Source of the DNA: a virus
Taxonomy: Duplodnaviria > Caudoviricetes
IMG/VR virus record: IMGVR_UViG_3300021426_000001
Strand: one strand, 5' to 3'
DNA length: 64,000 nucleotides
Shown here piece after piece: positions 2,770 through 46,595 of this stretch; the stretch's first letter is position 1; each line of letters opens with the position of its first letter. Under the pieces are notes generated by a model, which searched no databases, was not told where the DNA came from, and saw nothing but the letters and a program-made list of their open reading frames with translations. The translations under genes and the position numbers were made by a program.

Positions 2770-3678
2770 ATGAGAAAAACTAAAGACGTGACACTGAATA
2801 TCTCTAGCGACGATGTGCTGAAGATGATCGAACACGAGGAGAAGACCATGAAGGTCTCTAGCAAAGGTATGCTGAAGGCGGTCAAGGATTCTCGCGAGCG
2901 CTTTGACAAGTTCGCTAAGAAACTAAAAATCCTCGGACCTGAGGGAGAGGAAGAGTTCAAGCCGTTCACATGGCAGAAGAACCTCGGTCTCGCATTCCAG
3001 CAGGCTTACGAGTCTAAGAAGAAGTATCAGAGAAACTTCGTCGTCGTGAATCCGAGACAGGGCGGAATGACTACCCTTCTGTGCGCATACGCTCTATGGC
3101 TCGCATCTACGAAGCCGTGCAAGAGAGTTGGAATTCTCTGCGGCAGCAACATGCAGGGTGTCGAGAAGATGTTGAGAATCCAAGCGATGTATGACTCTCT
3201 CCCTAACTATCTGAAGAAGCCGATCAAGAAGAGACGCAAAGATCTGCTGGAGTTCACAGACGGAAGCTACATATATGCTACTCACGCCCATAGGAGCGAG
3301 GTGCTCGGAAAGACGCTCGATCTGGTGATTCTGGATGATGCAGCGTTTATCAGGGATCTATATGACTTCTTCAAGTGCTATCTACCGATGCACTCTGCTA
3401 TGTGCGTCAACTCTAAGACGGACAAGCCTCAGATGATCGTGACATCTGCTGCTAAGCCAGGGACTGCCTTCGCAGATCTCTATGGTAAGGCAGTCGGAAA
3501 GAAGTCTCTGTTCAGAAAGGTGCGCATTCCGTGGGACTGCCGTCCCGGCCGAGACAAAGCCTGGAAGGAGAAGATCATCCGCGATTACGGCCAAGCCTTC
3601 TTCGACTTCGAATACGACGGAAAGTTCGCCTCATATTCCGAACCTCCTACTCAGAAATCTGATCCGAAGAAGTCATAG
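2770..3678 (+). CDS. Terminase large-subunit ATPase-domain paralog with degenerate Walker motifs
   Basis: gp17-like motifs 'FKPFTWQ', 'NPRQGGMTT' (Walker A Lys replaced by Met), 'LVILDDAAF', 'IPWDCRPGRDKAWKEK..FFDFEY'; no nuclease domain. Confidence 0.75.
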   Translation: MRKTKDVTLNISSDDVLKMIEHEEKTMKVSSKGMLKAVKDSRERFDKFAKKLKILGPEGEEEFKPFTWQKNLGLAFQQAYESKKKYQRNFVVVNPRQGGMTTLLCAYALWLASTKPCKRVGILCGSNMQGVEKMLRIQAMYDSLPNYLKKPIKKRRKDLLEFTDGSYIYATHAHRSEVLGKTLDLVILDDAAFIRDLYDFFKCYLPMHSAMCVNSKTDKPQMIVTSAAKPGTAFADLYGKAVGKKSLFRKVRIPWDCRPGRDKAWKEKIIRDYGQAFFDFEYDGKFASYSEPPTQKSDPKKS

Positions 3679-4306
3679 TAGACTTCCCAGATCCGTTCGA
3701 CTTCTCGTAACGGAAGTCTCCAATGGTCATTGTCCCTTCCAGGGCAGTGACCTCTTCTTTTGTTATCTTGCGGAGTCCTACCTGCTTCTCGACGTAGAGC
3801 ATGTTGTGGGCGTTCGTCTTGTTGATCTCAGCTTCGAGTCCGAGACGGAAGCAGCGGTTCATAGAGAGCGACATCTGCCATGCTTCTCGTTCTACGAAGT
3901 AGCGAGTGATGTTGTCGCATGGCAGCTTCGGGAGCTTGAGAGTCTCGATGATCGGCAGATCTTTCTGGGTGTATTTTCCGCCGTTGCATGCGAAGTGGAT
4001 GTAGTGGGAGCACTCATGGAGAAAGATCGCTACGTCGTGATCAGATTCGAACTTGAGCACGTTCCTCTGAGTGTCGTAGTAGTTTTTCGAGAGATAGAGG
4101 ATGTTGACGAACTTCTGAGTCGTGAAGAATCCTCCGATCCCTCTGCGATCCAGAACTTCTTGGTCCTGAAATACGATAGAAGCGTACTTGGCAGAGGTGA
4201 TCTTGCCGCGAATGAAGTTCCATGCGATGCTGAACTTCTTGTTCTCTTCAGTGAGTTCGAGCTTTGCGACCTGAATTCTGGTCAAAATGATGCGGTTGTC
4301 TTTCAT
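3647..4306 (-). CDS. Putative zincin-type metallopeptidase
   Basis: 'FLHECSHYIH' (HExxH) plus downstream 'EREAW'; start moved to ATG 4306 behind AAGGGA and an early promoter. Confidence 0.55.
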   Translation of the reverse strand: MKDNRIILTRIQVAKLELTEENKKFSIAWNFIRGKITSAKYASIVFQDQEVLDRRGIGGFFTTQKFVNILYLSKNYYDTQRNVLKFESDHDVAIFLHECSHYIHFACNGGKYTQKDLPIIETLKLPKLPCDNITRYFVEREAWQMSLSMNRCFRLGLEAEINKTNAHNMLYVEKQVGLRKITKEEVTALEGTMTIGDFRYEKSNGSGKSTMTSSDQISE

Positions 4307-4336
4307 GAGTGGTCCCTTGTTCCTGTTTACGCTATC

Positions 4337-4365
4337 AATATAGGATTTTCTCAAGGCTTTGTAAA
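4337..4365 (-). promoter_or_regulatory. Early sigma70-like promoter
   Basis: TTTACA-N17-TATATT on minus strand. Confidence 0.8.
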
Positions 4366-4398
4366 TGGAAAAAATTGAGATTTTCTCAAAAATAGGGG

Positions 4399-4427
4399 TT
4401 TACAAAGTGTCTGGAAAATCCTATATT
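4399..4427 (+). promoter_or_regulatory. Early sigma70-like promoter
   Basis: TTTACA-N17-TATATT upstream of the vWA gene. Confidence 0.85.
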
Positions 4428-4456
4428 CTACTCGTAAAACAACAAAGGACCTAGAA

Positions 4457-6271
4457 ATGGAAATCGAGATCACTCCGGAAAACGTAGAAAAGAAGTTCGC
4501 CAACGCAGTCGACTACTACTGCATCTACATGCCGAACCTCCTCAACTTCTACCAGCTGTTCACACGCCGCGTGAACAACAAGATCGCTTCCATGAGAATC
4601 TGCGTCAAGCGCGACGTCACTCCGGTTCTCGAATACAACGAGAAGTGGGTCTGCGAAATCGACCCGGCTCTCTTCAATCAGGCTCTCGCAATCGATCTCT
4701 ACCGCTTCATCAATCATCACTGCACGCTTCGTGAACTTCAGGGCGCTAACGCTTTCAAGGCTTCCACTGCCGTCTGCAACAGCCCGGAACTTCAACAGTT
4801 CCTCAAGGCTGCTCCGTTCGAACTCGCCGAGATGGCTAGAAAGCTCATCTGGTCTCGCGAAATCATCGAAGAAGAGATCGGAGAGAAGATCTCTGATGAA
4901 GACTGGTATTATGAATCCGTCTTCGAGATCCTCAACCGCAAGTCTCCGCAACAGCAGCAACAGAACCAGAACCAAGACGACAACCAGTCTGGATCTGGTC
5001 AGGAACAGCAGCAACAGTCTGGGTCTTCCGACGATGACAAGAAGGATGACAACAAGGACGGCTCTGGCAAGAACGACCAGAAGGACAAGGACGACAAGTC
5101 CAAGGGCTCTTCTAAGAAGGACAAGGATGGAGAAGAGGGCGACAAGGACTCTGACTCCGACCAACAGGACGGAGACGGTGACGGCGACGAAGAAGACCAA
5201 GACCAGAACTCCAACGGCAAGGACGGAAAGGACAAGGACTCTAACGGGAAAGACGGAAAGGACAAGGACTCTAAGGACCAAGACCAAGAAGGTGACGGCA
5301 AGGGCGACAAGAACCAGAAGTCCGATGGAAAGGACGGAAAGGATGACCAGAACGAGCAGAACAGCCAAAACGGCGGCAAGGACGGTCAGGAGGGAGACGA
5401 AGAAGACGACTCCGACGAACAGGACGGCGAAGGCGATTCTGACTCCAAAGACGGTCAAAACGGCAAAGACGGCGATTCCGACAAGCAGGACGGAAACGGC
5501 GGAAAGAGCCCTCGTGACCAAGAACTCGACGACAACGCCAACGCAGATCCGTCCAAGGCTCCGAACAGCACTGGAAATCCGTTCAAGGACTGGAGCTCTA
5601 ATGGCGACGAAAACACCGAAGAATGGGGCAGAAATCAGGTCGTAGACCAGCTCATTCAGGAAGCTTTTGAACACAGCAAGAGCACTGGCTGGGGCTCTCT
5701 CACCGGTTCCGAGATCTCTCAAATCGAGATCGCCAACCGCAGAAAGATCAGCATCACGCCGATTATCGCTTCTTTCGCTGCCTCTGTCCGCACGAGAAAG
5801 CGCTTCGCAACCCGCATGCGCTACAACAAGCGCTACGGATTGATCTTTCCGGGCTACCGTCTCGACCGCAAGTCCAGAATCCTCTTCGCCATCGACTCTT
5901 CGGGATCTATGAGCGACGAAGACATCAACAAGGGCTGCGCAATTCTGCACAACTTCCTCAAGAAGTGCGACATCGACGTGGCATTCTGGGATGCACAGAT
6001 GATTGACCCGTTCAAGTTCAAGAAGAACATCACGAAGATCGATGCTCCGGGCCGTGGCGGCACTGATCCGCACTGCGTAGGTGAATACCTCGACGAACAT
6101 CAGAAGCTCCACTACGACGGCGTCATCCTCTTCACTGACTGCATCTGGCGCTGGGAAGAGAACAACCTCAAGATGCCTATCTTCATCATCAGCTCGGAAG
6201 AAAAATACCGCGTGCCGAGCTTCGTGAAGCACCATACGACGATCCAGGCTCTCACTCACTGCTTCGACTAA
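4457..6271 (+). CDS. vWA-domain protein (DUF2201-like) with acidic low-complexity linker
   Basis: C-terminal MIDAS 'AIDSSGSM', 'GRGGTD', 'ILFTD'; N-terminal metallopeptidase-like region lacking HExxH; D/G/K/Q/N-rich middle. Confidence 0.8.
   Translation: MEIEITPENVEKKFANAVDYYCIYMPNLLNFYQLFTRRVNNKIASMRICVKRDVTPVLEYNEKWVCEIDPALFNQALAIDLYRFINHHCTLRELQGANAFKASTAVCNSPELQQFLKAAPFELAEMARKLIWSREIIEEEIGEKISDEDWYYESVFEILNRKSPQQQQQNQNQDDNQSGSGQEQQQQSGSSDDDKKDDNKDGSGKNDQKDKDDKSKGSSKKDKDGEEGDKDSDSDQQDGDGDGDEEDQDQNSNGKDGKDKDSNGKDGKDKDSKDQDQEGDGKGDKNQKSDGKDGKDDQNEQNSQNGGKDGQEGDEEDDSDEQDGEGDSDSKDGQNGKDGDSDKQDGNGGKSPRDQELDDNANADPSKAPNSTGNPFKDWSSNGDENTEEWGRNQVVDQLIQEAFEHSKSTGWGSLTGSEISQIEIANRRKISITPIIASFAASVRTRKRFATRMRYNKRYGLIFPGYRLDRKSRILFAIDSSGSMSDEDINKGCAILHNFLKKCDIDVAFWDAQMIDPFKFKKNITKIDAPGRGGTDPHCVGEYLDEHQKLHYDGVILFTDCIWRWEENNLKMPIFIISSEEKYRVPSFVKHHTTIQALTHCFD
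5208..5274 (+). repeat. 30-bp tandem repeat encoding SNGKDGKDKD
   Basis: actccaacggcaaggacggaaaggacaagg followed by actctaacgggaaagacggaaaggacaagg. Confidence 0.85.
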
Positions 6272-6290
6272 CTTCAACCAAGGACAAACT

Positions 6291-6506
6291 ATGAACAAGA
6301 AACTCATCGCACGCTTCATCCACGACTTCGTAGAATCCAAGTACCGCGATCTCATTCCCTACTCTGTCATCGAGAATTCAGTCACTGTGTACCCTGATGG
6401 CAGATTTGGCTTCAACTGTCATGATCTGATGATGAAGTACGGGATAGGCCTAGATCAGTTCAAGAGGGACTTCTCAGACCTGATTCTGATCTTCAACAAG
6501 ACGTAG
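6291..6506 (+). CDS. Hypothetical protein
   Basis: 71 aa, AAGGA RBS, phage-like codon usage. Confidence 0.65.
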   Translation: MNKKLIARFIHDFVESKYRDLIPYSVIENSVTVYPDGRFGFNCHDLMMKYGIGLDQFKRDFSDLILIFNKT

Positions 6507-6540
6507 CGCATAAAAATCCGAGAAAATCTGAAAATCGAGG

Positions 6541-6569
6541 TTTACAAAGAACCTCGATTTTTCTATATT
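6541..6569 (+). promoter_or_regulatory. Early promoter inside a 12-bp inverted repeat
   Basis: TTTACA-N17-TATATT; AAAATCGAGGTT (6531-6542) / AACCTCGATTTT (6550-6561). Confidence 0.8.
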
Positions 6570-6597
6570 GGGAATGTAAAACAAAGGGAATTGAACC

Positions 6598-6903
6598 ATG
6601 AGAAAAGATGAAAAGCTCCACAAAATCTACGTTGCGCTCGAAAACGCACTCAAAGATCTCAATCTTCAGCATCACGGCTATCCGGAAATAGTGAACTTCA
6701 CGGTCTTCCAGACTGGCACTCCAGAGGTCTTCGCATTCTTCCCTAACCTCGGTCTCGTTGAGGCTAAGGTAGCTGCAGGCGAGACTACGGTCGACGAAGT
6801 CATGAGGAACGTCAAGAAGTTCGACGACGAAACCGCAGAATATCTCTTCGAAGTCGCATCCGATCTCTACTTCCACAACACTTTCGTGGGTCTTCCCAAA
6901 TAA
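6598..6903 (+). CDS. Hypothetical early protein
   Basis: 101 aa behind early promoter and AAAGGG RBS. Confidence 0.7.
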   Translation: MRKDEKLHKIYVALENALKDLNLQHHGYPEIVNFTVFQTGTPEVFAFFPNLGLVEAKVAAGETTVDEVMRNVKKFDDETAEYLFEVASDLYFHNTFVGLPK

Positions 6904-6929
6904 AACTCAAAATTTTCTCGATTTTGGGG

Positions 6930-6958
6930 TTTACAATCTGTTGAGAAATTCCTATATT
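6930..6958 (+). promoter_or_regulatory. Early sigma70-like promoter
   Basis: TTTACA-N17-TATATT. Confidence 0.85.
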
Positions 6959-7003
6959 GATAATGTAAAACAAAAGAGCTAACTTCAACAAGGACCATTT
7001 AAA

Positions 7004-8131
7004 ATGCTCGAAAAAGTCTCTATCGCAGAATTTATCGAACTCGCCCTCTGCTGCCCTGATGAACAGGCAATGCTCATTCTCGGCGACTTCGGTATTGGTA
7101 AGACCCAAGTCGTTCAGAAGGTCGGAACTATTCTCGGAATAGACGTCATCGTGTTCGACTGCACTCACCTCAATGACCCTGGCGACATTCTCGGTCTTCC
7201 GTCCATCATCAACGGTCGCACCATCTTCAACCCGACTTACTGGTATCATCCTGAAAAGCCGGTGCTGCTCTTCTTCGACGAAGTATTCCGTGCTACTCCG
7301 GAAGTTCGCGCTGCTCTCATGACTCTCTGCTTGGACCAGACAATTGGCGACAAGAAGCTCGCTCCTGGCTCTCGCGTCTTCGCTGCTGCTAACCCGCCGG
7401 GATTCCACGGCTACGAAGGTGAAATTCCTGACCCGGCTCAGCTCTCCCGCTACGCTCCGTACTGGCTTGATCCGACCTTCAACGAATGGTACGAATACGC
7501 TAAGGAAGCTAAGGTTCACCCAGCTATCCTCGAATACTTGAACAACAACAAGAAGGACCTCGACGCTTACTCCGCTGCTAGCGACATGAACGTCGCAGCC
7601 GACGACGGCAACGGCGCCGACCTCAAGATCCTCCAGTGCCGTCGTTCTTGGTTCAAGGCTTCCGACAACCTCTACAAGGCCGAGAAGGTCAAGAAGGTCA
7701 AGAAGCTCGACCGAAACCTCGTGATCCGCATCATGAGCGGCTACATCCCGGCTACGATGGCTGTGAAGTTCGCTCAGACCTACATGAACACTTCCACTTC
7801 GAGCCTCAACGCCGAAGACGTCCTCAACGACTGGAAGAAGGTCAAACCGGCCGATGGCGCTAAGCTGGATGTGCCGACCGCTGCAAAGCTCGCTGGCGAC
7901 ATCAAGCTCATCGTCAAGGAAACGATGAAGGAAAAGGGATCTATCCCGAAGAAGTGGAAGAACAACTTCTCTGGCTTCATTCAGGAAGGTCTCTCGAAGG
8001 AATCCCAAGTCGCTGTCATTAACAACCTGATCTTCCAGGACATGACGAACAACGAAGACTGGGTCTTCTGGATCTCCGACGACGAACTCCAGTCGTTCTT
8101 CGAAACCACGGTGGCCTCCAAGGTCGCCTAA
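7004..8131 (+). CDS. MoxR-family AAA+ ATPase
   Basis: Walker A GDFGIGKT, 'DILGLP', Walker B LFFDEVFRA, 'AAANP', 'DPAQLSRY'; near the vWA gene. Confidence 0.85.
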   Translation: MLEKVSIAEFIELALCCPDEQAMLILGDFGIGKTQVVQKVGTILGIDVIVFDCTHLNDPGDILGLPSIINGRTIFNPTYWYHPEKPVLLFFDEVFRATPEVRAALMTLCLDQTIGDKKLAPGSRVFAAANPPGFHGYEGEIPDPAQLSRYAPYWLDPTFNEWYEYAKEAKVHPAILEYLNNNKKDLDAYSAASDMNVAADDGNGADLKILQCRRSWFKASDNLYKAEKVKKVKKLDRNLVIRIMSGYIPATMAVKFAQTYMNTSTSSLNAEDVLNDWKKVKPADGAKLDVPTAAKLAGDIKLIVKETMKEKGSIPKKWKNNFSGFIQEGLSKESQVAVINNLIFQDMTNNEDWVFWISDDELQSFFETTVASKVA

Positions 8132-8144
8132 CATTAAAATTCTC

Positions 8145-8201
8145 GGACCCTCACCCTTTCCTTATGGTCCTTTGTTTTACACTGGGTGAGGGTCCTTTCT
8201 T
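8145..8201 (+). terminator. Terminator-like 12-bp stem with a 27-nt loop antisense to early leaders (candidate regulatory RNA)
   Basis: GGACCCTCACCC / GGGTGAGGGTCC then TTTCTT; loop TTTCCTTATGGTCCTTTGTTTTACACT. Confidence 0.7.
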
Positions 8202-8202
8202 G

Positions 8203-8210
8203 TATAAATA
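8203..8210 (+). promoter_or_regulatory. T4-type late promoter
   Basis: TATAAATA upstream of 8227. Confidence 0.75.
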
Positions 8211-8226
8211 AAGAGAGGTTTAAATT

Positions 8227-8991
8227 ATGTCAATGGATATTGAAAAAGCGCTTAACATACTCTCTGAGTCTCACATCATCTTGGAGAGAAAGAAGGTCTC
8301 TGAGATGACTCCTGAAGAGTACGAGAGAGATCTCGCAGCGAGAAGAAAGAGAAGAGAGCTTAGAAAGCAGAGAGCTGCTAACGCTTCGCCTGCTCAGCAG
8401 CCTGAGAAACCGAAACAGGCTGAGCCGAGAGAAACTCCGAAGCCGACTGGAAAGTGGTACGTGATCGGAAGGAGATCTCCGATTCCAGAGACACTAGAAG
8501 AAAAGGGACTCGTGAAGAAGCTCGCTACTAATGAGGACCTAGATGCATTCTTGAGATACAAGGGCGGTCTGAAGATGGGCCCGTTCGGCACTAAGGAAGA
8601 GGCTGTGGCTGCAGCGAGAAGCTCAGTGAAGAATCTAGTGAACTATTACAGAGATAGAATCTCCAAGAAGGTAAAAGAGAATCCAGACTACTTGACTGAG
8701 TACTCTCAGGACAATTCCTACGTCAATTCTAAGCTATACGTAGTAGACTTCTCCGAGAAGAACCGCAAATGGTCTAGCGGTAGAAGAGGTCCGGGCGACT
8801 CTGGCTGGTGGTACAACTCAGACGATGAGGCTTCTGACAATTTGAACAGACCAGCTAAGAAGTTCAACGACGACCTCACGAAGCTCATAGAGGATGCACT
8901 AGAGGCTAAGCGTGAGCGTCAGAGACGCAGCAGCTACTCTTCATGGGATCCGAACTCTCCGACCTACAGAAACGTCTTCGCTCATCATTAA
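8227..8991 (+). CDS. Hypothetical late protein, possible internal head protein; paralog of 9007
   Basis: Late promoter; N-terminal ~43 aa shared with next gene; LSE/ILE protease-site-like motifs. Confidence 0.7.
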   Translation: MSMDIEKALNILSESHIILERKKVSEMTPEEYERDLAARRKRRELRKQRAANASPAQQPEKPKQAEPRETPKPTGKWYVIGRRSPIPETLEEKGLVKKLATNEDLDAFLRYKGGLKMGPFGTKEEAVAAARSSVKNLVNYYRDRISKKVKENPDYLTEYSQDNSYVNSKLYVVDFSEKNRKWSSGRRGPGDSGWWYNSDDEASDNLNRPAKKFNDDLTKLIEDALEAKRERQRRSSYSSWDPNSPTYRNVFAHH

Positions 8992-9006
8992 GAAGGAGAT
9001 TTGAAC

Positions 9007-9480
9007 ATGTCTATGGATCTAAAAAGAGCACTTGGAATTATCAATGAGTCTAGACTCATTCTTGAGCGTAAGAGGGCTTCTGAAATGACGCCTGAAGAGC
9101 ACGAGAAGTATCTAGCTGATAGATCGAACAGAAGAGCTGCGAGAAAGAGAGTAGCGTCTTTCGCAGTAGAGAGGAACAAGCTAAAAGAACTAATCGCTTG
9201 CGCCGAGGGTCTACTTGGGGCTAGAGAAGAGCTCCTGAAGAGAGGCTGGGAACCACTAGAGGGACGTGACATCGACAAAGAGCATCAGGGATTCTGGCTC
9301 AAGAAGGCTAATGGACCCGATAGATGGATATATGTTGGAGCCCACATCGCATACCTAGGCGATGGCGTAAGAGTACGTATCGACAATCCAGCAGAAGATG
9401 CGTTCATAAAGCCTGTAGCTACTAAGGAATCGATCGTATCAGCTATCGATAATCTCTTGGCTAAGAACAATCTTCAGTAG
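9007..9480 (+). CDS. Hypothetical late protein, N-terminal paralog of 8227
   Basis: MSMDLKRALGIINESRLILERKRASEMTPEE vs MSMDIEKALNILSESHIILERKKVSEMTPEE. Confidence 0.7.
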   Translation: MSMDLKRALGIINESRLILERKRASEMTPEEHEKYLADRSNRRAARKRVASFAVERNKLKELIACAEGLLGAREELLKRGWEPLEGRDIDKEHQGFWLKKANGPDRWIYVGAHIAYLGDGVRVRIDNPAEDAFIKPVATKESIVSAIDNLLAKNNLQ

Positions 9481-9497
9481 AAGAAAATCCAAATGAC

Positions 9498-9533
9498 AAA
9501 AAGAGCAGAGCCGTCAAGCTCTGCTCTCTTTTT
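9498..9533. terminator. Bidirectional intrinsic terminator
   Basis: AGAGCAGAGC/GCTCTGCTCT stem with A- and T-tracts between convergent genes. Confidence 0.75.
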
Positions 9534-9550
9534 GTGATGACAGTAAGTCC

Positions 9551-11521
9551 TTACAGATCTTTCATCTCGAGCGCGTACTCGTACCACTTTCTGGCGTCGA
9601 ACTCTCTCTTTCTGTCATTGGAGTATGACTTTCTCGGAGTGAGGAATCCGACGATTCTCGTGTACTGATCATAGACGCCTTCGCCGCAAACTGGACAGAT
9701 GTTCGTTCCCACGAAAGCGTGATGGTTCTTGCAGACGTTGATCTTCGTGTTGAATGCGAAGTAGATCACGCCTCTAGAAGCGATCTTGTTGAGCATGTCC
9801 CACGCGACATCCTTGTTCGGGAAGTTGCTCTCGATGTTGATGTGAGCGATAGCGCCGCCAGAGCACATCTTGTCGAGGACTGAGGAGAGACGGATCTTCT
9901 CCTGGATAGTGCACTTCTCTTTGAGCGGGATCCACTGGTTCGAGTAGATGAAGTCGTCATCTCTGTCATAGAGAAGGTTGTCCTTCTGGCAGAGAATCAC
10001 AGCAGCTCTCTCGGCTGGAACAGACTCGATGTTGAAGCTGTACTTGTCAGTGAAGTTGTCCTTCACGTCGTTGATCGTGTCGAAGATTGCTTGAGCGAGC
10101 TTGATTCCCTCGTCAGTGTAGCTCTTGTTTCCGAACTCGTCAGTCTTGATGAATCCGAACTCCTTGATTGTCTCGTAGAGTCCGAGAATTCCGACAGTGC
10201 TGTACTGATGGTTGATGTCGATTCCGCCCTCGATGTAGTTCGGCAGAAGTCCACGCTGAACATTCTTCGTGATGATCTCTCGCTGGACGTCGAGAAGCTT
10301 GCAGCAGAGCTCAGTTCTCTTTCTCAGCAGCTTGAGGTAAGCGTTGATCCAAGAGATCTTGGAGTCTTCCTTCTCCTTCTTAGTCTCGATAGCGATTCTC
10401 ACTAGGTTCATCGTATTGACCTTGATCGATCCGATGGATAGCGAGGTTCCGCCGATGGAGTTCATGAAGCCCTTGAGCTTTGATGTGTCACTCAGCAAAC
10501 GACAGCAGTTCGACAATGTAGTCACGTCTTCTGAGACGAAGAAGTTAGAGTCGTTCCACTTCGTGTTGTGGTCAGAGCACCAGCGAGCGAAGTCTTCGTC
10601 AACAAATTTTCCGTTCTTGTACTGCAGCGAGAAGGTGAGCACTGGGAACGTGAACATGTTCTCGCTGCGGATCTCTGATACGACTTCCATGAAGATCTTC
10701 TGATGCTCGATGAAGTCTTCCATCTGGTCGATGAAGAATGTTCCGTCTGGGTACTCTAGACCGCCGAAGAGAGCTTCACAGTACTGACGGTCGAAGATTG
10801 ACACGTTAACGAATGCAGTCTGGTCAATGCGCATAAACGGCTGATTTAGGCGGTATATGAGCTTCTGGAAGGCCTGTCTAAGGTAACTATCCGGGTCCTT
10901 AGTATAGAAGCCCTGATCTACGTCTTTGCGCCAAAAATAGTAGGTCCATACGAGGATGTTCGGAATGCCGACTGCGCCAGAGCTTCTGTTGCTCATGAAT
11001 GACACGAACTCGATCACGTCGTCGAGGAACGTTCCGAGGTGCTTCGGCGGTACGTTGTTGTAGTTCTTGAGGAAGAACAGACCCTCTTTAGCGAGGCGGG
11101 TGAGGTCGTAAGCGAAGCAGTAGCCCATGTAGGTAGAAGTGCAAGCGTCGTGCAGATAGAATCCGCCGTTGTACTCCTGATTGAGCCACTCGCGGGCGGT
11201 CTTGAGTCCGTATTTCTGCTTCAGCTCAAGGAAGAGCTTGTTGAACGCGAAGATCTTGTCAAGCGGCTTGTCTTTCTCGTTCAGGAGGGCTCTGATGTCC
11301 TTTGTAGAAGCGTTTGCGTTAGCGTCGATAGTGACATCTGCTGTTACTGCGTTCTTCGCAGTGAATGCGTCAATGAAGTCTGAGAAGTTCAAGTTTCTCT
11401 CAGCGAATCCGTTGAGAACTTCGAAGTCTTCGCCGTAGGTCTCTTCGATGCTAGCTAGAGCCTTTGAGAAGTCCTTGTTGACCTTCAGCGGGATGTTGAA
11501 AACTGAATTGTTTACTGCCAT
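9551..11521 (-). CDS. nrdD: Anaerobic (class III) ribonucleotide reductase, no ATP cone
   Basis: 'FYLHD', 'YCFAY', 'SNCCRL', 'ESVPAE', C-terminal metal site CKNH..CPVCG, glycyl-radical loop 'TRIVGFL'. Confidence 0.92.
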   Translation of the reverse strand: MAVNNSVFNIPLKVNKDFSKALASIEETYGEDFEVLNGFAERNLNFSDFIDAFTAKNAVTADVTIDANANASTKDIRALLNEKDKPLDKIFAFNKLFLELKQKYGLKTAREWLNQEYNGGFYLHDACTSTYMGYCFAYDLTRLAKEGLFFLKNYNNVPPKHLGTFLDDVIEFVSFMSNRSSGAVGIPNILVWTYYFWRKDVDQGFYTKDPDSYLRQAFQKLIYRLNQPFMRIDQTAFVNVSIFDRQYCEALFGGLEYPDGTFFIDQMEDFIEHQKIFMEVVSEIRSENMFTFPVLTFSLQYKNGKFVDEDFARWCSDHNTKWNDSNFFVSEDVTTLSNCCRLLSDTSKLKGFMNSIGGTSLSIGSIKVNTMNLVRIAIETKKEKEDSKISWINAYLKLLRKRTELCCKLLDVQREIITKNVQRGLLPNYIEGGIDINHQYSTVGILGLYETIKEFGFIKTDEFGNKSYTDEGIKLAQAIFDTINDVKDNFTDKYSFNIESVPAERAAVILCQKDNLLYDRDDDFIYSNQWIPLKEKCTIQEKIRLSSVLDKMCSGGAIAHINIESNFPNKDVAWDMLNKIASRGVIYFAFNTKINVCKNHHAFVGTNICPVCGEGVYDQYTRIVGFLTPRKSYSNDRKREFDARKWYEYALEMKDL

Positions 11522-42119: not shown

Positions 42120-42149
42120 GTACATACAAACTTAAACAAAGGATAAACA

Positions 42150-44084: not shown

Positions 44085-44116
44085 TACATCGTAAACCAAT
44101 AACAAAGGACTTGAAG

Positions 44117-44443
44117 ATGGCTAAAGAACTCACAGAAGAACAAAAACTCCGCCGCAAGGAACGTGCTGCTGCTCGTCGCGCTAAGAAGAAAGAAGAGAAG
44201 GCTGCAGAAGAAGCTAAGAAAGCTGCACGCAAGAAACACGCTGAAGAACGTCGTCGTCAGAAGAAAGCTGAGTTCGACCGCACAGAACAACGCCTTAAGA
44301 AGACCTATATCGGCAAGAATATCGACAACACTGATCTCGAACTGATCAACTACCCGTTTTACACCACTAGCTACAATCACGAAGTCAAGGTCGATGTCGG
44401 AGCCGACGACATCATCAAGGCCGTAAAACTCACGAGAATGTAA
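44117..44443 (+). CDS. Highly basic hypothetical early protein
   Basis: Start ATG 44117 behind AAAGGA; K/R/A/E-rich helix. Confidence 0.7.
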   Translation: MAKELTEEQKLRRKERAAARRAKKKEEKAAEEAKKAARKKHAEERRRQKKAEFDRTEQRLKKTYIGKNIDNTDLELINYPFYTTSYNHEVKVDVGADDIIKAVKLTRM

Positions 44444-45517: not shown

Positions 45518-45552
45518 TTACGTGTAAAACAAATCAACAAAGGATCAAGAAA

Positions 45553-45954
45553 ATGCTCGAACCGACCTCTAAAGCTCTCCAATACTTCGAAGAAAAAGCC
45601 ATGAAGGCTATGAAGCGCAAAGTCGCTAAGGCTAAGAAGCGCCTCTCTAACTTCGAAAAGCACTACTTGGCCCTCAAGAATAGTCTCGTCAACGCCGACT
45701 TCACTGAACTCAACCAGATGTCAGATGACGAGAACACGTTCTGCTTCTACTTCACTACGCCGATGTTTCCGAAGGATCTCTTCCGTGTCGCTATGGAACT
45801 CAACTGCGACAAAGTATGGGTAGAGTCCACTCAGAAGAATGAACAGGGGATCACGCGCTGGACTTTCACTGGATGCTTCGAAGATGTCAATCGCGAAGAC
45901 TTCATTCAATACTTTGACCACGTCTTCTACGAACGCGGCCGTAAGCAATGCTAA
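45553..45954 (+). CDS. Hypothetical early protein
   Basis: 133 aa behind early promoter. Confidence 0.7.
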   Translation: MLEPTSKALQYFEEKAMKAMKRKVAKAKKRLSNFEKHYLALKNSLVNADFTELNQMSDDENTFCFYFTTPMFPKDLFRVAMELNCDKVWVESTQKNEQGITRWTFTGCFEDVNREDFIQYFDHVFYERGRKQC

Positions 45955-46267: not shown

Positions 46268-46298
46268 TTACGTGTAGCTTCAACAAGGGATCAGGAAA

Positions 46299-46595
46299 AT
46301 GAGTTTACACACCGCTCGTAAAAGGATCGATGATCTTACGATAGACGAATTGGAACGAGAATTGGAATGCGCTTATAAGCTTTTTAGAGACATAAATTGG
46401 CGATACGAATACAATAGAAGAATGAATCAGTTTAAGCTGGATTTTCCGAATGCGTCTGAAACTGATATCAGATGTCAATATGCTAAAGAAGCGCATCACC
46501 TAGCCACTATCCTAAACGCTACTGGCGAGGATTATATCGATCTGCTGAAGACATTCATCAAGCTCAAGAAGGGTTTAGCTAAGGAGGAACTATGA
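46299..46595 (+). CDS. Hypothetical early protein
   Basis: 98 aa behind early promoter. Confidence 0.65.
   Translation: MSLHTARKRIDDLTIDELERELECAYKLFRDINWRYEYNRRMNQFKLDFPNASETDIRCQYAKEAHHLATILNATGEDYIDLLKTFIKLKKGLAKEEL

Follow-up and report, generated by a model that had tools for sequence, protein, structure and literature searches.

A terminator-like stem-loop behind an early gene of T4-like rumen phages and the complementarity of its loop to early leaders and ribosome binding sites

In bacteriophage T4 the translational repressor RegA and the endoribonuclease RegB are responsible for the post-transcriptional shut-off of many early mRNAs at their ribosome binding sites (RBSs). To our knowledge, these protein factors are the only ones known to act in the early-to-late transition of T4-like phages. 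The hairpin described here is proposed to have the same role, but with an RNA loop in place of proteins.

Several described RNAs come close to such an element. The RepG sRNA of Helicobacter pylori carries a C/U-rich seed in its terminator loop, directed against a purine-rich target leader or Shine–Dalgarno sequence (PMC8295292), and the LhrC sRNAs of Listeria monocytogenes also have a terminator-loop seed, in which compensatory mutations have been tested (PMC4132741). The phage hairpin resembles both in having a C/U-rich loop, on a Rho-independent terminator, that is complementary to purine-rich leader and Shine–Dalgarno sequences, the pairing being predicted in our case. However, RepG and LhrC are stand-alone bacterial sRNA genes with promoters of their own while the phage hairpin is the 3′ end of a protein-coding early mRNA; its loop is much larger (27 nt), its targets would be the phage's own early leaders and there is no sequence relationship. 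In the icaR mRNA of Staphylococcus aureus a pyrimidine-rich anti-Shine–Dalgarno motif of the 3′ UTR pairs with the mRNA's own Shine–Dalgarno sequence and blocks initiation (PMC3868564). The phage element likewise offers a 3′ UTR motif complementary to the Shine–Dalgarno sequence of the same mRNA. In icaR, though, the motif lies in a long 3′ UTR, acts in cis and leads to RNase III cleavage, whereas here it is placed in a terminator loop, and in several relatives its best complements are the leaders of other genes, which would need action in trans.

Among phages, the c4 antisense RNA of P1 and P7 (Rfam C4) has loops complementary to the RBS regions of phage mRNA and blocks their translation (PMC12197685). 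Our element is also a phage RNA with a loop complementary to phage RBS regions, but c4 is released by processing from the immI operon of temperate phages, of which it forms a 5′ part, and serves to control an antirepressor, while the present hairpin is a terminator in a virulent-type T4-like phage; the Rfam C4 covariance model found no match in 6400-9700 (cmscan, E up to 1). Bacterial 3′ UTR-derived sRNAs share their terminator with the upstream coding gene (PMC5502269), and for Pseudomonas phages candidate 3′ UTR-derived ncRNAs have been reported from ONT-cappable-seq without assigned targets (bioRxiv 10.1101/2023.10.13.562163). Classic RNAs of this kind have their seed upstream of the terminator hairpin, an arrangement that we see in a single variant only (L024, below). 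The phage hairpin thus shares the logic of these RNAs, but neither its sequence nor its context places it among them. We found no direct precedent in the literature for a phage terminator-loop anti-RBS element; what would be new is the terminator of an early protein-coding gene in a T4-like phage, with a 27-nt loop aimed at the leaders of the phage's own early class.

The hairpin and its genomic setting

The window, by which we mean the whole 64,000-nt stretch of DNA analysed, is part of an uncultured T4-like rumen phage and encodes topoisomerase II subunits, NrdD, a portal protein, a baseplate wedge protein and a DnaB-like helicase. Its relatives encode gp23, gp13 and IF-1, and the related contigs, of up to 298 kb, come from gut or rumen-type samples; a blastn search of 4300-9600 against the INPHARED phages gave no match. 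An HExxH protein, a VWA-like DUF2201 protein and a MoxR-like ATPase make up an early module that is conserved in all relatives. The early HExxH gene (3647-4306, minus strand) is divergent and adjoins the VWA gene, and its 219-aa product bears the motif HECSH.

The promoter of the MoxR-like gene (Table 1) has a TTTACA-N17-TATATT architecture that the window repeats at 10 or more sites and that also precedes MoxR in the relatives. The leaders behind it follow a common pattern: N5-6, GTAAAAC ..., AACAAGGAYC, N5-7, ATG. The second promoter class is defined by the T4-type late box TATAAATA, present in nine exact copies in the window. Beyond the hairpin, the relatives have either a late-type TATAAATA box or a convergent nrdD terminator. 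Since an early promoter precedes MoxR and a late box follows the hairpin, the hairpin closes the early MoxR unit; late transcripts of gene 8227 would start downstream of it. The exact TATAAATA boxes, at 8203-8210 and at eight other sites (2731, 11651, 13288, 16468, 26512, 30326, 33783, 53600 on the minus strand), are located a short way upstream of many gene starts and look like late promoters.

Two side observations concern these flanking elements. The −35 boxes of most early promoters are flanked on both sides by the arms of an inverted repeat resembling GATTTTCTC ... GAGAAAATC (4399, 6930, 46239, 58696(-), 62633(-), 4365(-) and also 6531-6561, the last being a perfect 12-bp hairpin with TTTACAA in its loop and T's behind it). 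This hairpin could be the terminator of the preceding unit and overlap with the promoter that follows, or could be an operator. In two relatives (L018:4309-7134 and L021:1333-4120) nrdD is called as two pieces with an extra gene of 370-410 aa between or beside them. This gene has weak DUF7487/MTES_1575 matches and may be a mobile endonuclease-type insertion splitting nrdD.

Table 1. Positions of the hairpin, its flanking signals and the early leaders with predicted loop pairing (energies include opening costs)
Feature	Position	Strand	Basis or remarks
Leader of divergent HExxH-motif gene 3647-4306	4307..4331	-	RBS box AACAAGGGACCAC; predicted -17.6 kcal/mol
Leader of VWA-like (DUF2201) gene 4457-6271	4434..4456	+	GTAAAACAA and AACAAAGGACC complementary to loop; predicted -19.6 kcal/mol
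Leader of ORF 6598-6903	6575..6597	+	Longest exact loop complement, 13 nt; predicted -20.9 kcal/mol
Early sigma-70-type promoter of MoxR-like gene	6930..6958	+	TTTACA, 17 nt, TATATT; recurrent architecture
MoxR leader	6964..7003	+	5′ box TGTAAAACAAA (6964-6974) and RBS box AAGGACCAT (6990-6998), both complementary to loop; predicted -15.1 kcal/mol
MoxR-like AAA+ ATPase gene, 375 aa	7004..8131	+	Pfam AAA_5, 7e-6; AAA_3 and bpMoxR under cut-off
Hairpin 5′ arm, GGACCCTCACCC	8145..8156	+	Inverted repeat, RNA fold; 7/12 pairs covary in relatives
27-nt loop	8157..8183	+	Anti-RBS core TGGTCCTTTGT at 8165-8175; anti-5′-leader part TTTGTTTTACAC at 8171-8182
Hairpin 3′ arm, GGGTGAGGGTCC	8184..8195	+	Inverted repeat, covariation
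U-rich tail, TTTCTTGT	8196..8203	+	With stem, intrinsic-terminator-like end of early MoxR unit
Late box TATAAATA, T4-type late promoter for gene 8227-8991	8203..8210	+	Box shared by relatives having the downstream gene
Early leader of ORF 44117-44443	44101..44116	+	Exact complement of 10 nt; predicted -15.2 kcal/mol
Early leader of ORF 45553-45954	45522..45552	+	Exact complements of 12 nt and 9 nt; predicted -13.7 kcal/mol
Early leader of ORF 46299-46595	46273..46298	+	CTTCAACAAGGGATC; predicted -16.1 kcal/mol

A sequence-only reading of this DNA had described a perfect 12-bp stem with a 27-nt loop behind the MoxR stop codon, and both are found there, the hairpin starting 13 nt past the stop. 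The predicted RNA fold consists of the 12-bp stem and an open loop (−26.1 kcal/mol, z = −4.5, with none of 200 shuffles as good), and the predicted cost of opening the loop is as low as 0.9 kcal/mol. With its G+C-rich stem (nine of the 12 pairs are G-C), the adjoining U-rich tract (6/8 T) and its position at the end of a transcription unit, the hairpin looks like an intrinsic terminator. Its loop does not have the short length (about 3-8 nt) expected of one, being 27 nt long in the window and 23-28 nt in the relatives. The loops of the other terminator-like hairpins of the phage measure 3-8 nt, with 4-6 nt for its normal terminators, so the loop was rightly called unusually large, and no other perfect inverted repeat of at least 12 bp with a large loop occurs in the 64-kb window. 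A consensus terminator scan restricted to loops of 3-8 nt missed the hairpin, and cmscan of 6400-9700 (E up to 1) assigned it to no Rfam family, giving only a sub-threshold sbrA match at 9477-9533. Parts of the stretch are present in seven public metatranscriptome runs from bovine, sheep and unspecified animal gut; the RNA-library contigs from four of them (X1, X2, X4 and X5), which as contigs give neither ends nor strand, cover parts of the VWA and MoxR genes and nothing of 8132-8210.

Complementarity of the loop to early leaders

The reverse complement of the loop had been said to match leaders behind the early promoters. All of the exact matches are where they were claimed to be: 13 nt at 6575-6587, 12 nt at 45522-45533, 11 nt at 6964-6974 and at 4441-4451, 10 nt at 44101-44110 and at 42134-42143, and 9 nt at 6990-6998. 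The six matches of at least 10 nt are all in the sense orientation and all lie in leaders that follow TTTACA-N17-TATATT. As both boxes of the VWA leader are complementary to the loop, the latter reads as a condensed antisense copy of that leader.

The core complement, ACAAGGACCA, is the RBS box of the early class and is present in the MoxR leader of every relative as well as in the VWA and HExxH leaders. This box is class-specific: each A[AG]GGA[CT]C located 4-7 nt before a called start codon in the window belongs to a TATATT-type leader, and the late genes have GGAG/GAGG as their RBS. Pairing with the canonical 16S tail, which may not be that of the host, does not require the bases 3′ of AAGGA (CC, then A). 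In the early RBS box these same bases are matched by the loop. A further block, AGAGCYAACTTCAAC, is conserved before the AAGGACC RBS of MoxR in every relative (6975-6998 in the window), and CTAACTTCAACCAAGGAC recurs before ORF 6291 (6265-6290); the block may resemble the T7 gene 10 leader TTAACTTTAAGAAGGAG, the 'epsilon' enhancer.

Pairing between the loop and a leader creates a pseudoknot, which RNAfold and cofold are unable to represent, and we therefore replaced them by the duplex energy combined with the opening energies. The mean duplex energy with 19 early leaders was −15.1 kcal/mol compared to −9.5 ± 1.1 for shuffled loops, and none of 500 shuffles was as good. With the opening energies included, seven leaders reached −13 kcal/mol or better as against 0.24 expected and a maximum of two in 200 shuffles; as the leaders are mutually homologous, this excess should be counted as a single strong fit to their consensus and not as a series of independent ones. 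The comparison with shuffled loops proposed for the earlier claim thus comes out in favour of the early leaders. The seven strong predicted targets are the HExxH gene (4306, minus strand), the VWA-like gene (4457), ORF 6598, MoxR (7004) and ORFs 44117, 45553 and 46299, corresponding to about 7 of the 20 TATATT-type leaders in the window, or about a third. Several early leaders are therefore predicted targets, as the sequence-only reading had it, but its suggestion of a simultaneous shutdown of many early genes goes too far. Pairing between the loop and the RBS of the downstream late gene was considered as well and is not conserved in the relatives.

Conservation and covariation in relatives

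Homologues of MoxR with 60-78% identity were collected from IMG/VR, JGI metagenomes, ENA, NCBI and Logan assemblies. Scanning IMG/VR with a DNA pattern returned a single relative, one already known. The anti-RBS core is found behind the MoxR stop in all 19 relatives whose MoxR is at least 60% identical, and in 18 of them it lies inside a hairpin with a loop of 23-28 nt. These hairpins have perfect stems of 11-14 bp, begin 5-43 nt past the stop and in nearly all cases carry a T-rich tail. A hairpin of this sort is absent from two distant MoxR homologues (44-46% identity), whose RBSs are of the GGAG type. In L005, L006 and L022 (e.g. L022:2096-2135) one or two tandem TAGCGCAAGCTTCGCTTA-like copies separate the MoxR stop from the hairpin; they are similar to the gene's final codons and have the appearance of small duplications from its 3′ end.

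Six different stem sequences occur (GGACCCTCACCC, GGTCCCTCTCCC, GGTCCCGTCTCC, GGTCCCGCCTCC, GCCCCACCTCC and GGTCCCACCCTC), in addition to a 14-bp version in L019, and the 3′ arm matches every time. When the 14 distinct hairpins are aligned, 96.4% of the cells are paired compared to 40-60% with slid partners, and compensatory double changes affect seven of the 12 stem pairs. Because of this degree of pairing, the double changes and the perfect pairing of all six stems, the stem can be regarded as selected. The loop core UGGUCCUU(U)(U)GU, as DNA TGGTCCTT(T)(T)GT, does not change across relatives with up to 40% difference in MoxR, in contrast to the variable stem, spacer and loop flanks. Judging from these comparisons, structure and anti-RBS core are both under selection, and conservation in relatives, on which the antisense idea had been made to depend, comes out in its favour: the core is kept, the stem covaries and the flanks drift. 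In L024 (L024:5120-5200) the big hairpin is gone, and CTGGTCCTT is kept, weakly paired and mostly open, right before a strong nrdD-side terminator; by analogy, this layout corresponds to the usual one of 3′ UTR-derived sRNAs.

The central 8 bp of the pairing are unable to show covariation since both the core and the RBS box are invariant. In every relative, at least one leader of the module is complementary to the loop over 10-16 contiguous nt, often up to the ATG. The longest contiguous complement is 13 nt in the window (leader of ORF 6598) and in L019 (MoxR), 12-13 nt in L018 (VWA), 15-16 nt up to the ATG in L014 (VWA), 12 nt in L013 (VWA) and 12 nt up to the ATG in L023 (HExxH). In the clade of the window, the 3′ half of the loop is also antisense to the 5′ end of the leader, GTAAAACAAA, a feature that the L003 clade lacks in loop and leaders alike. 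Own loops fit own leaders better than foreign ones, with a longest complement of 12.1 vs 10.4 nt (permutation p = 0.002) and a mean ∆G of −19.3 vs −17.4 (p = 0.001), p-values that rest on two or three clades and thus on few independent events. The clade-wise co-variation of loop and leaders is suggestive, and not decisive, as the signal follows these two or three clades.

Rival readings and a proposed mode of action

The reading that we favour is that the early terminator doubles as a 3′-end antisense RNA which would occlude the RBSs of early mRNAs, especially those of the MoxR/VWA/HExxH module; from the comparisons above we put its probability at roughly 0.55. Pairing between the 5′ and 3′ ends in cis had also been proposed. 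In its strict form the loop would pair, as in icaR, just with the leader of its own MoxR mRNA, closing the molecule and autoregulating its translation or decay, with no targets in trans. The loop is indeed complementary to its own MoxR RBS in all relatives, over 9-13 nt and with at least 10-11 bp of pairing, and in two cases, the window and L001, the complementarity takes in the 5′ box of the MoxR leader in addition to its RBS box (11 + 9 nt, −19.5 kcal/mol, and 12 + 9 nt, −20.4 kcal/mol, respectively; 0/300 shuffles). Moreover, L019 is the only relative with AAAGG in its MoxR leader, which fits the three T's of its loop. Cis pairing alone, however, leaves two findings unaccounted for. In L014, L018, L013 and L023 the loop matches best with the VWA leader or with the HExxH leader, the latter being out of reach in cis because the HExxH gene is divergently transcribed, and unlinked early leaders at 44-46 kb match too. 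Members of the L003 clade share one loop flank (CTGGTCC) but differ in their MoxR leaders (GGACCAA/T/G), contrary to what cis-specific covariation would produce. The flank after GGACCA fits the loop in the window, L001, L018, L019, L014, L005, L007 and L010 and does not in L003, L004, L006, L012, L013 and L021, so that the cis-specific covariation of this base with the MoxR leader is inconsistent between clades. An action confined to cis is accordingly rather improbable. Given loops that stay fixed within clades as leaders vary, and given the HExxH and 44-46 kb matches, the sequences favour an action in trans, possibly combined with cis pairing.

The loop could instead be conserved as a binding site for a protein, either a RegA-like phage factor or an RNA-binding protein of the host, on a hairpin serving as terminator or stabilizer, with the RBS complementarity being incidental or of shared origin. 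An invariant core as short as 8-11 nt, itself without covariation and placed at the loop apex in several relatives, where inner mini-stems CAA/UUG or ACAA/UUGU are predicted, would suit a protein. On the other hand, a protein with affinity for the sense RBS box would not recognize the complementary sequence, and protein binding leaves unexplained the clade-specific complementarity past the core, i.e. anti-GUAAAAC in the clade of the window, CAATT in L014 and CAGTT in L023, each of which fits the leaders of its own phage; we consider this reading to be not very likely. The resemblance of the loop's reverse complement to a condensed early leader (GTAAAAC + AAAGGACC) and the repetition of promoter–leader cassettes around the genome raise the question of whether an inverted partial cassette was simply trapped between terminator arms as a functionless relic, or whether the element works at the DNA level as a cruciform or protein-binding site. 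Such a relic is unlikely, since the core has remained invariant amid a changing stem (seven of 12 positions), spacer and loop flanks, despite the divergence of MoxR; with a core that outlives even the loss of the stem in L024 and a conserved U-rich tail that points to a role at the RNA level, relic and DNA element together have a low probability. No minus-strand −10/−35 was found upstream of the loop, which speaks against a trapped promoter cassette and equally against taking the loop for the leader of a minus-strand gene, the 440-aa antisense ORF 6812-8134 that starts just past the hairpin. The RBS-like AAAGGACC on the minus strand is followed 30 nt on by the ATG of this ORF. Nevertheless, the frame contains 1-7 stops in L001, L007, L013, L014, L018 and L019, and codon statistics favour the plus strand. 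The ORF is effectively refuted as a gene by the stops in these six relatives and is a codon-usage shadow, the antisense frame being open because the MoxR gene avoids the codons TTA, CTA and TCA (0 among 376). Early genes are overlapped by very long shadow ORFs in antisense at 6812-8134 (-), 4451-6355 (-) and 3482-4378 (+).

Returning to the antisense reading, the hairpin would act as intrinsic terminator, or 3′-end stabilizer, of the early MoxR transcription unit, and its oversized unstructured loop would be retained by selection as an antisense seed. The core UGGUCCUU(U)GU, together with the anti-5′-end extension in the clade of the window, would pair with a leader stretch that runs from GUAAAAC, at about +1, to ACAAGGACCA, its RBS box. 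The acting RNA could be the 3′ end of the full mRNA or a stable 3′ fragment. By covering the Shine–Dalgarno region up to the start codon, the pairing would reduce initiation on early mRNAs, mainly those of the MoxR/VWA/HExxH module and a few other early genes. The outcome would be a negative feedback or an early shut-off that rises with accumulating early transcripts. In this model we infer the accumulation of the RNA, its pairing in vivo and its repressive effect. The bipartite pairings of 20 bp predicted for some leaders may fall short of full formation, as a stem-closed 27-nt loop fits only about one helical turn without strain.

With seed and targets both short and defined, the antisense idea is easily testable by reporter fusions. 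It also yields a search rule for uncultured phage genomes, namely to look for oversized terminator loops complementary to class-specific leaders. Tentatively, we can imagine that T4-like and other large uncultured phages commonly carry a class-wide anti-RBS switch of this type in the terminator loops of early operons, directed against private early RBSs, as an RNA counterpart of T4 RegA/RegB, and that the rumen family is one lineage of these; we would hold this extension with less than even confidence. If the pairing is real, the locus would be a very compact temporal switch in which the terminator of an early gene is at the same time a repressor of early translation and needs neither a gene nor a promoter of its own for this purpose. 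It would explain the upkeep of a private, extended RBS box on early genes and would add an RNA-based route to the early-to-late transition of T4-like phages.
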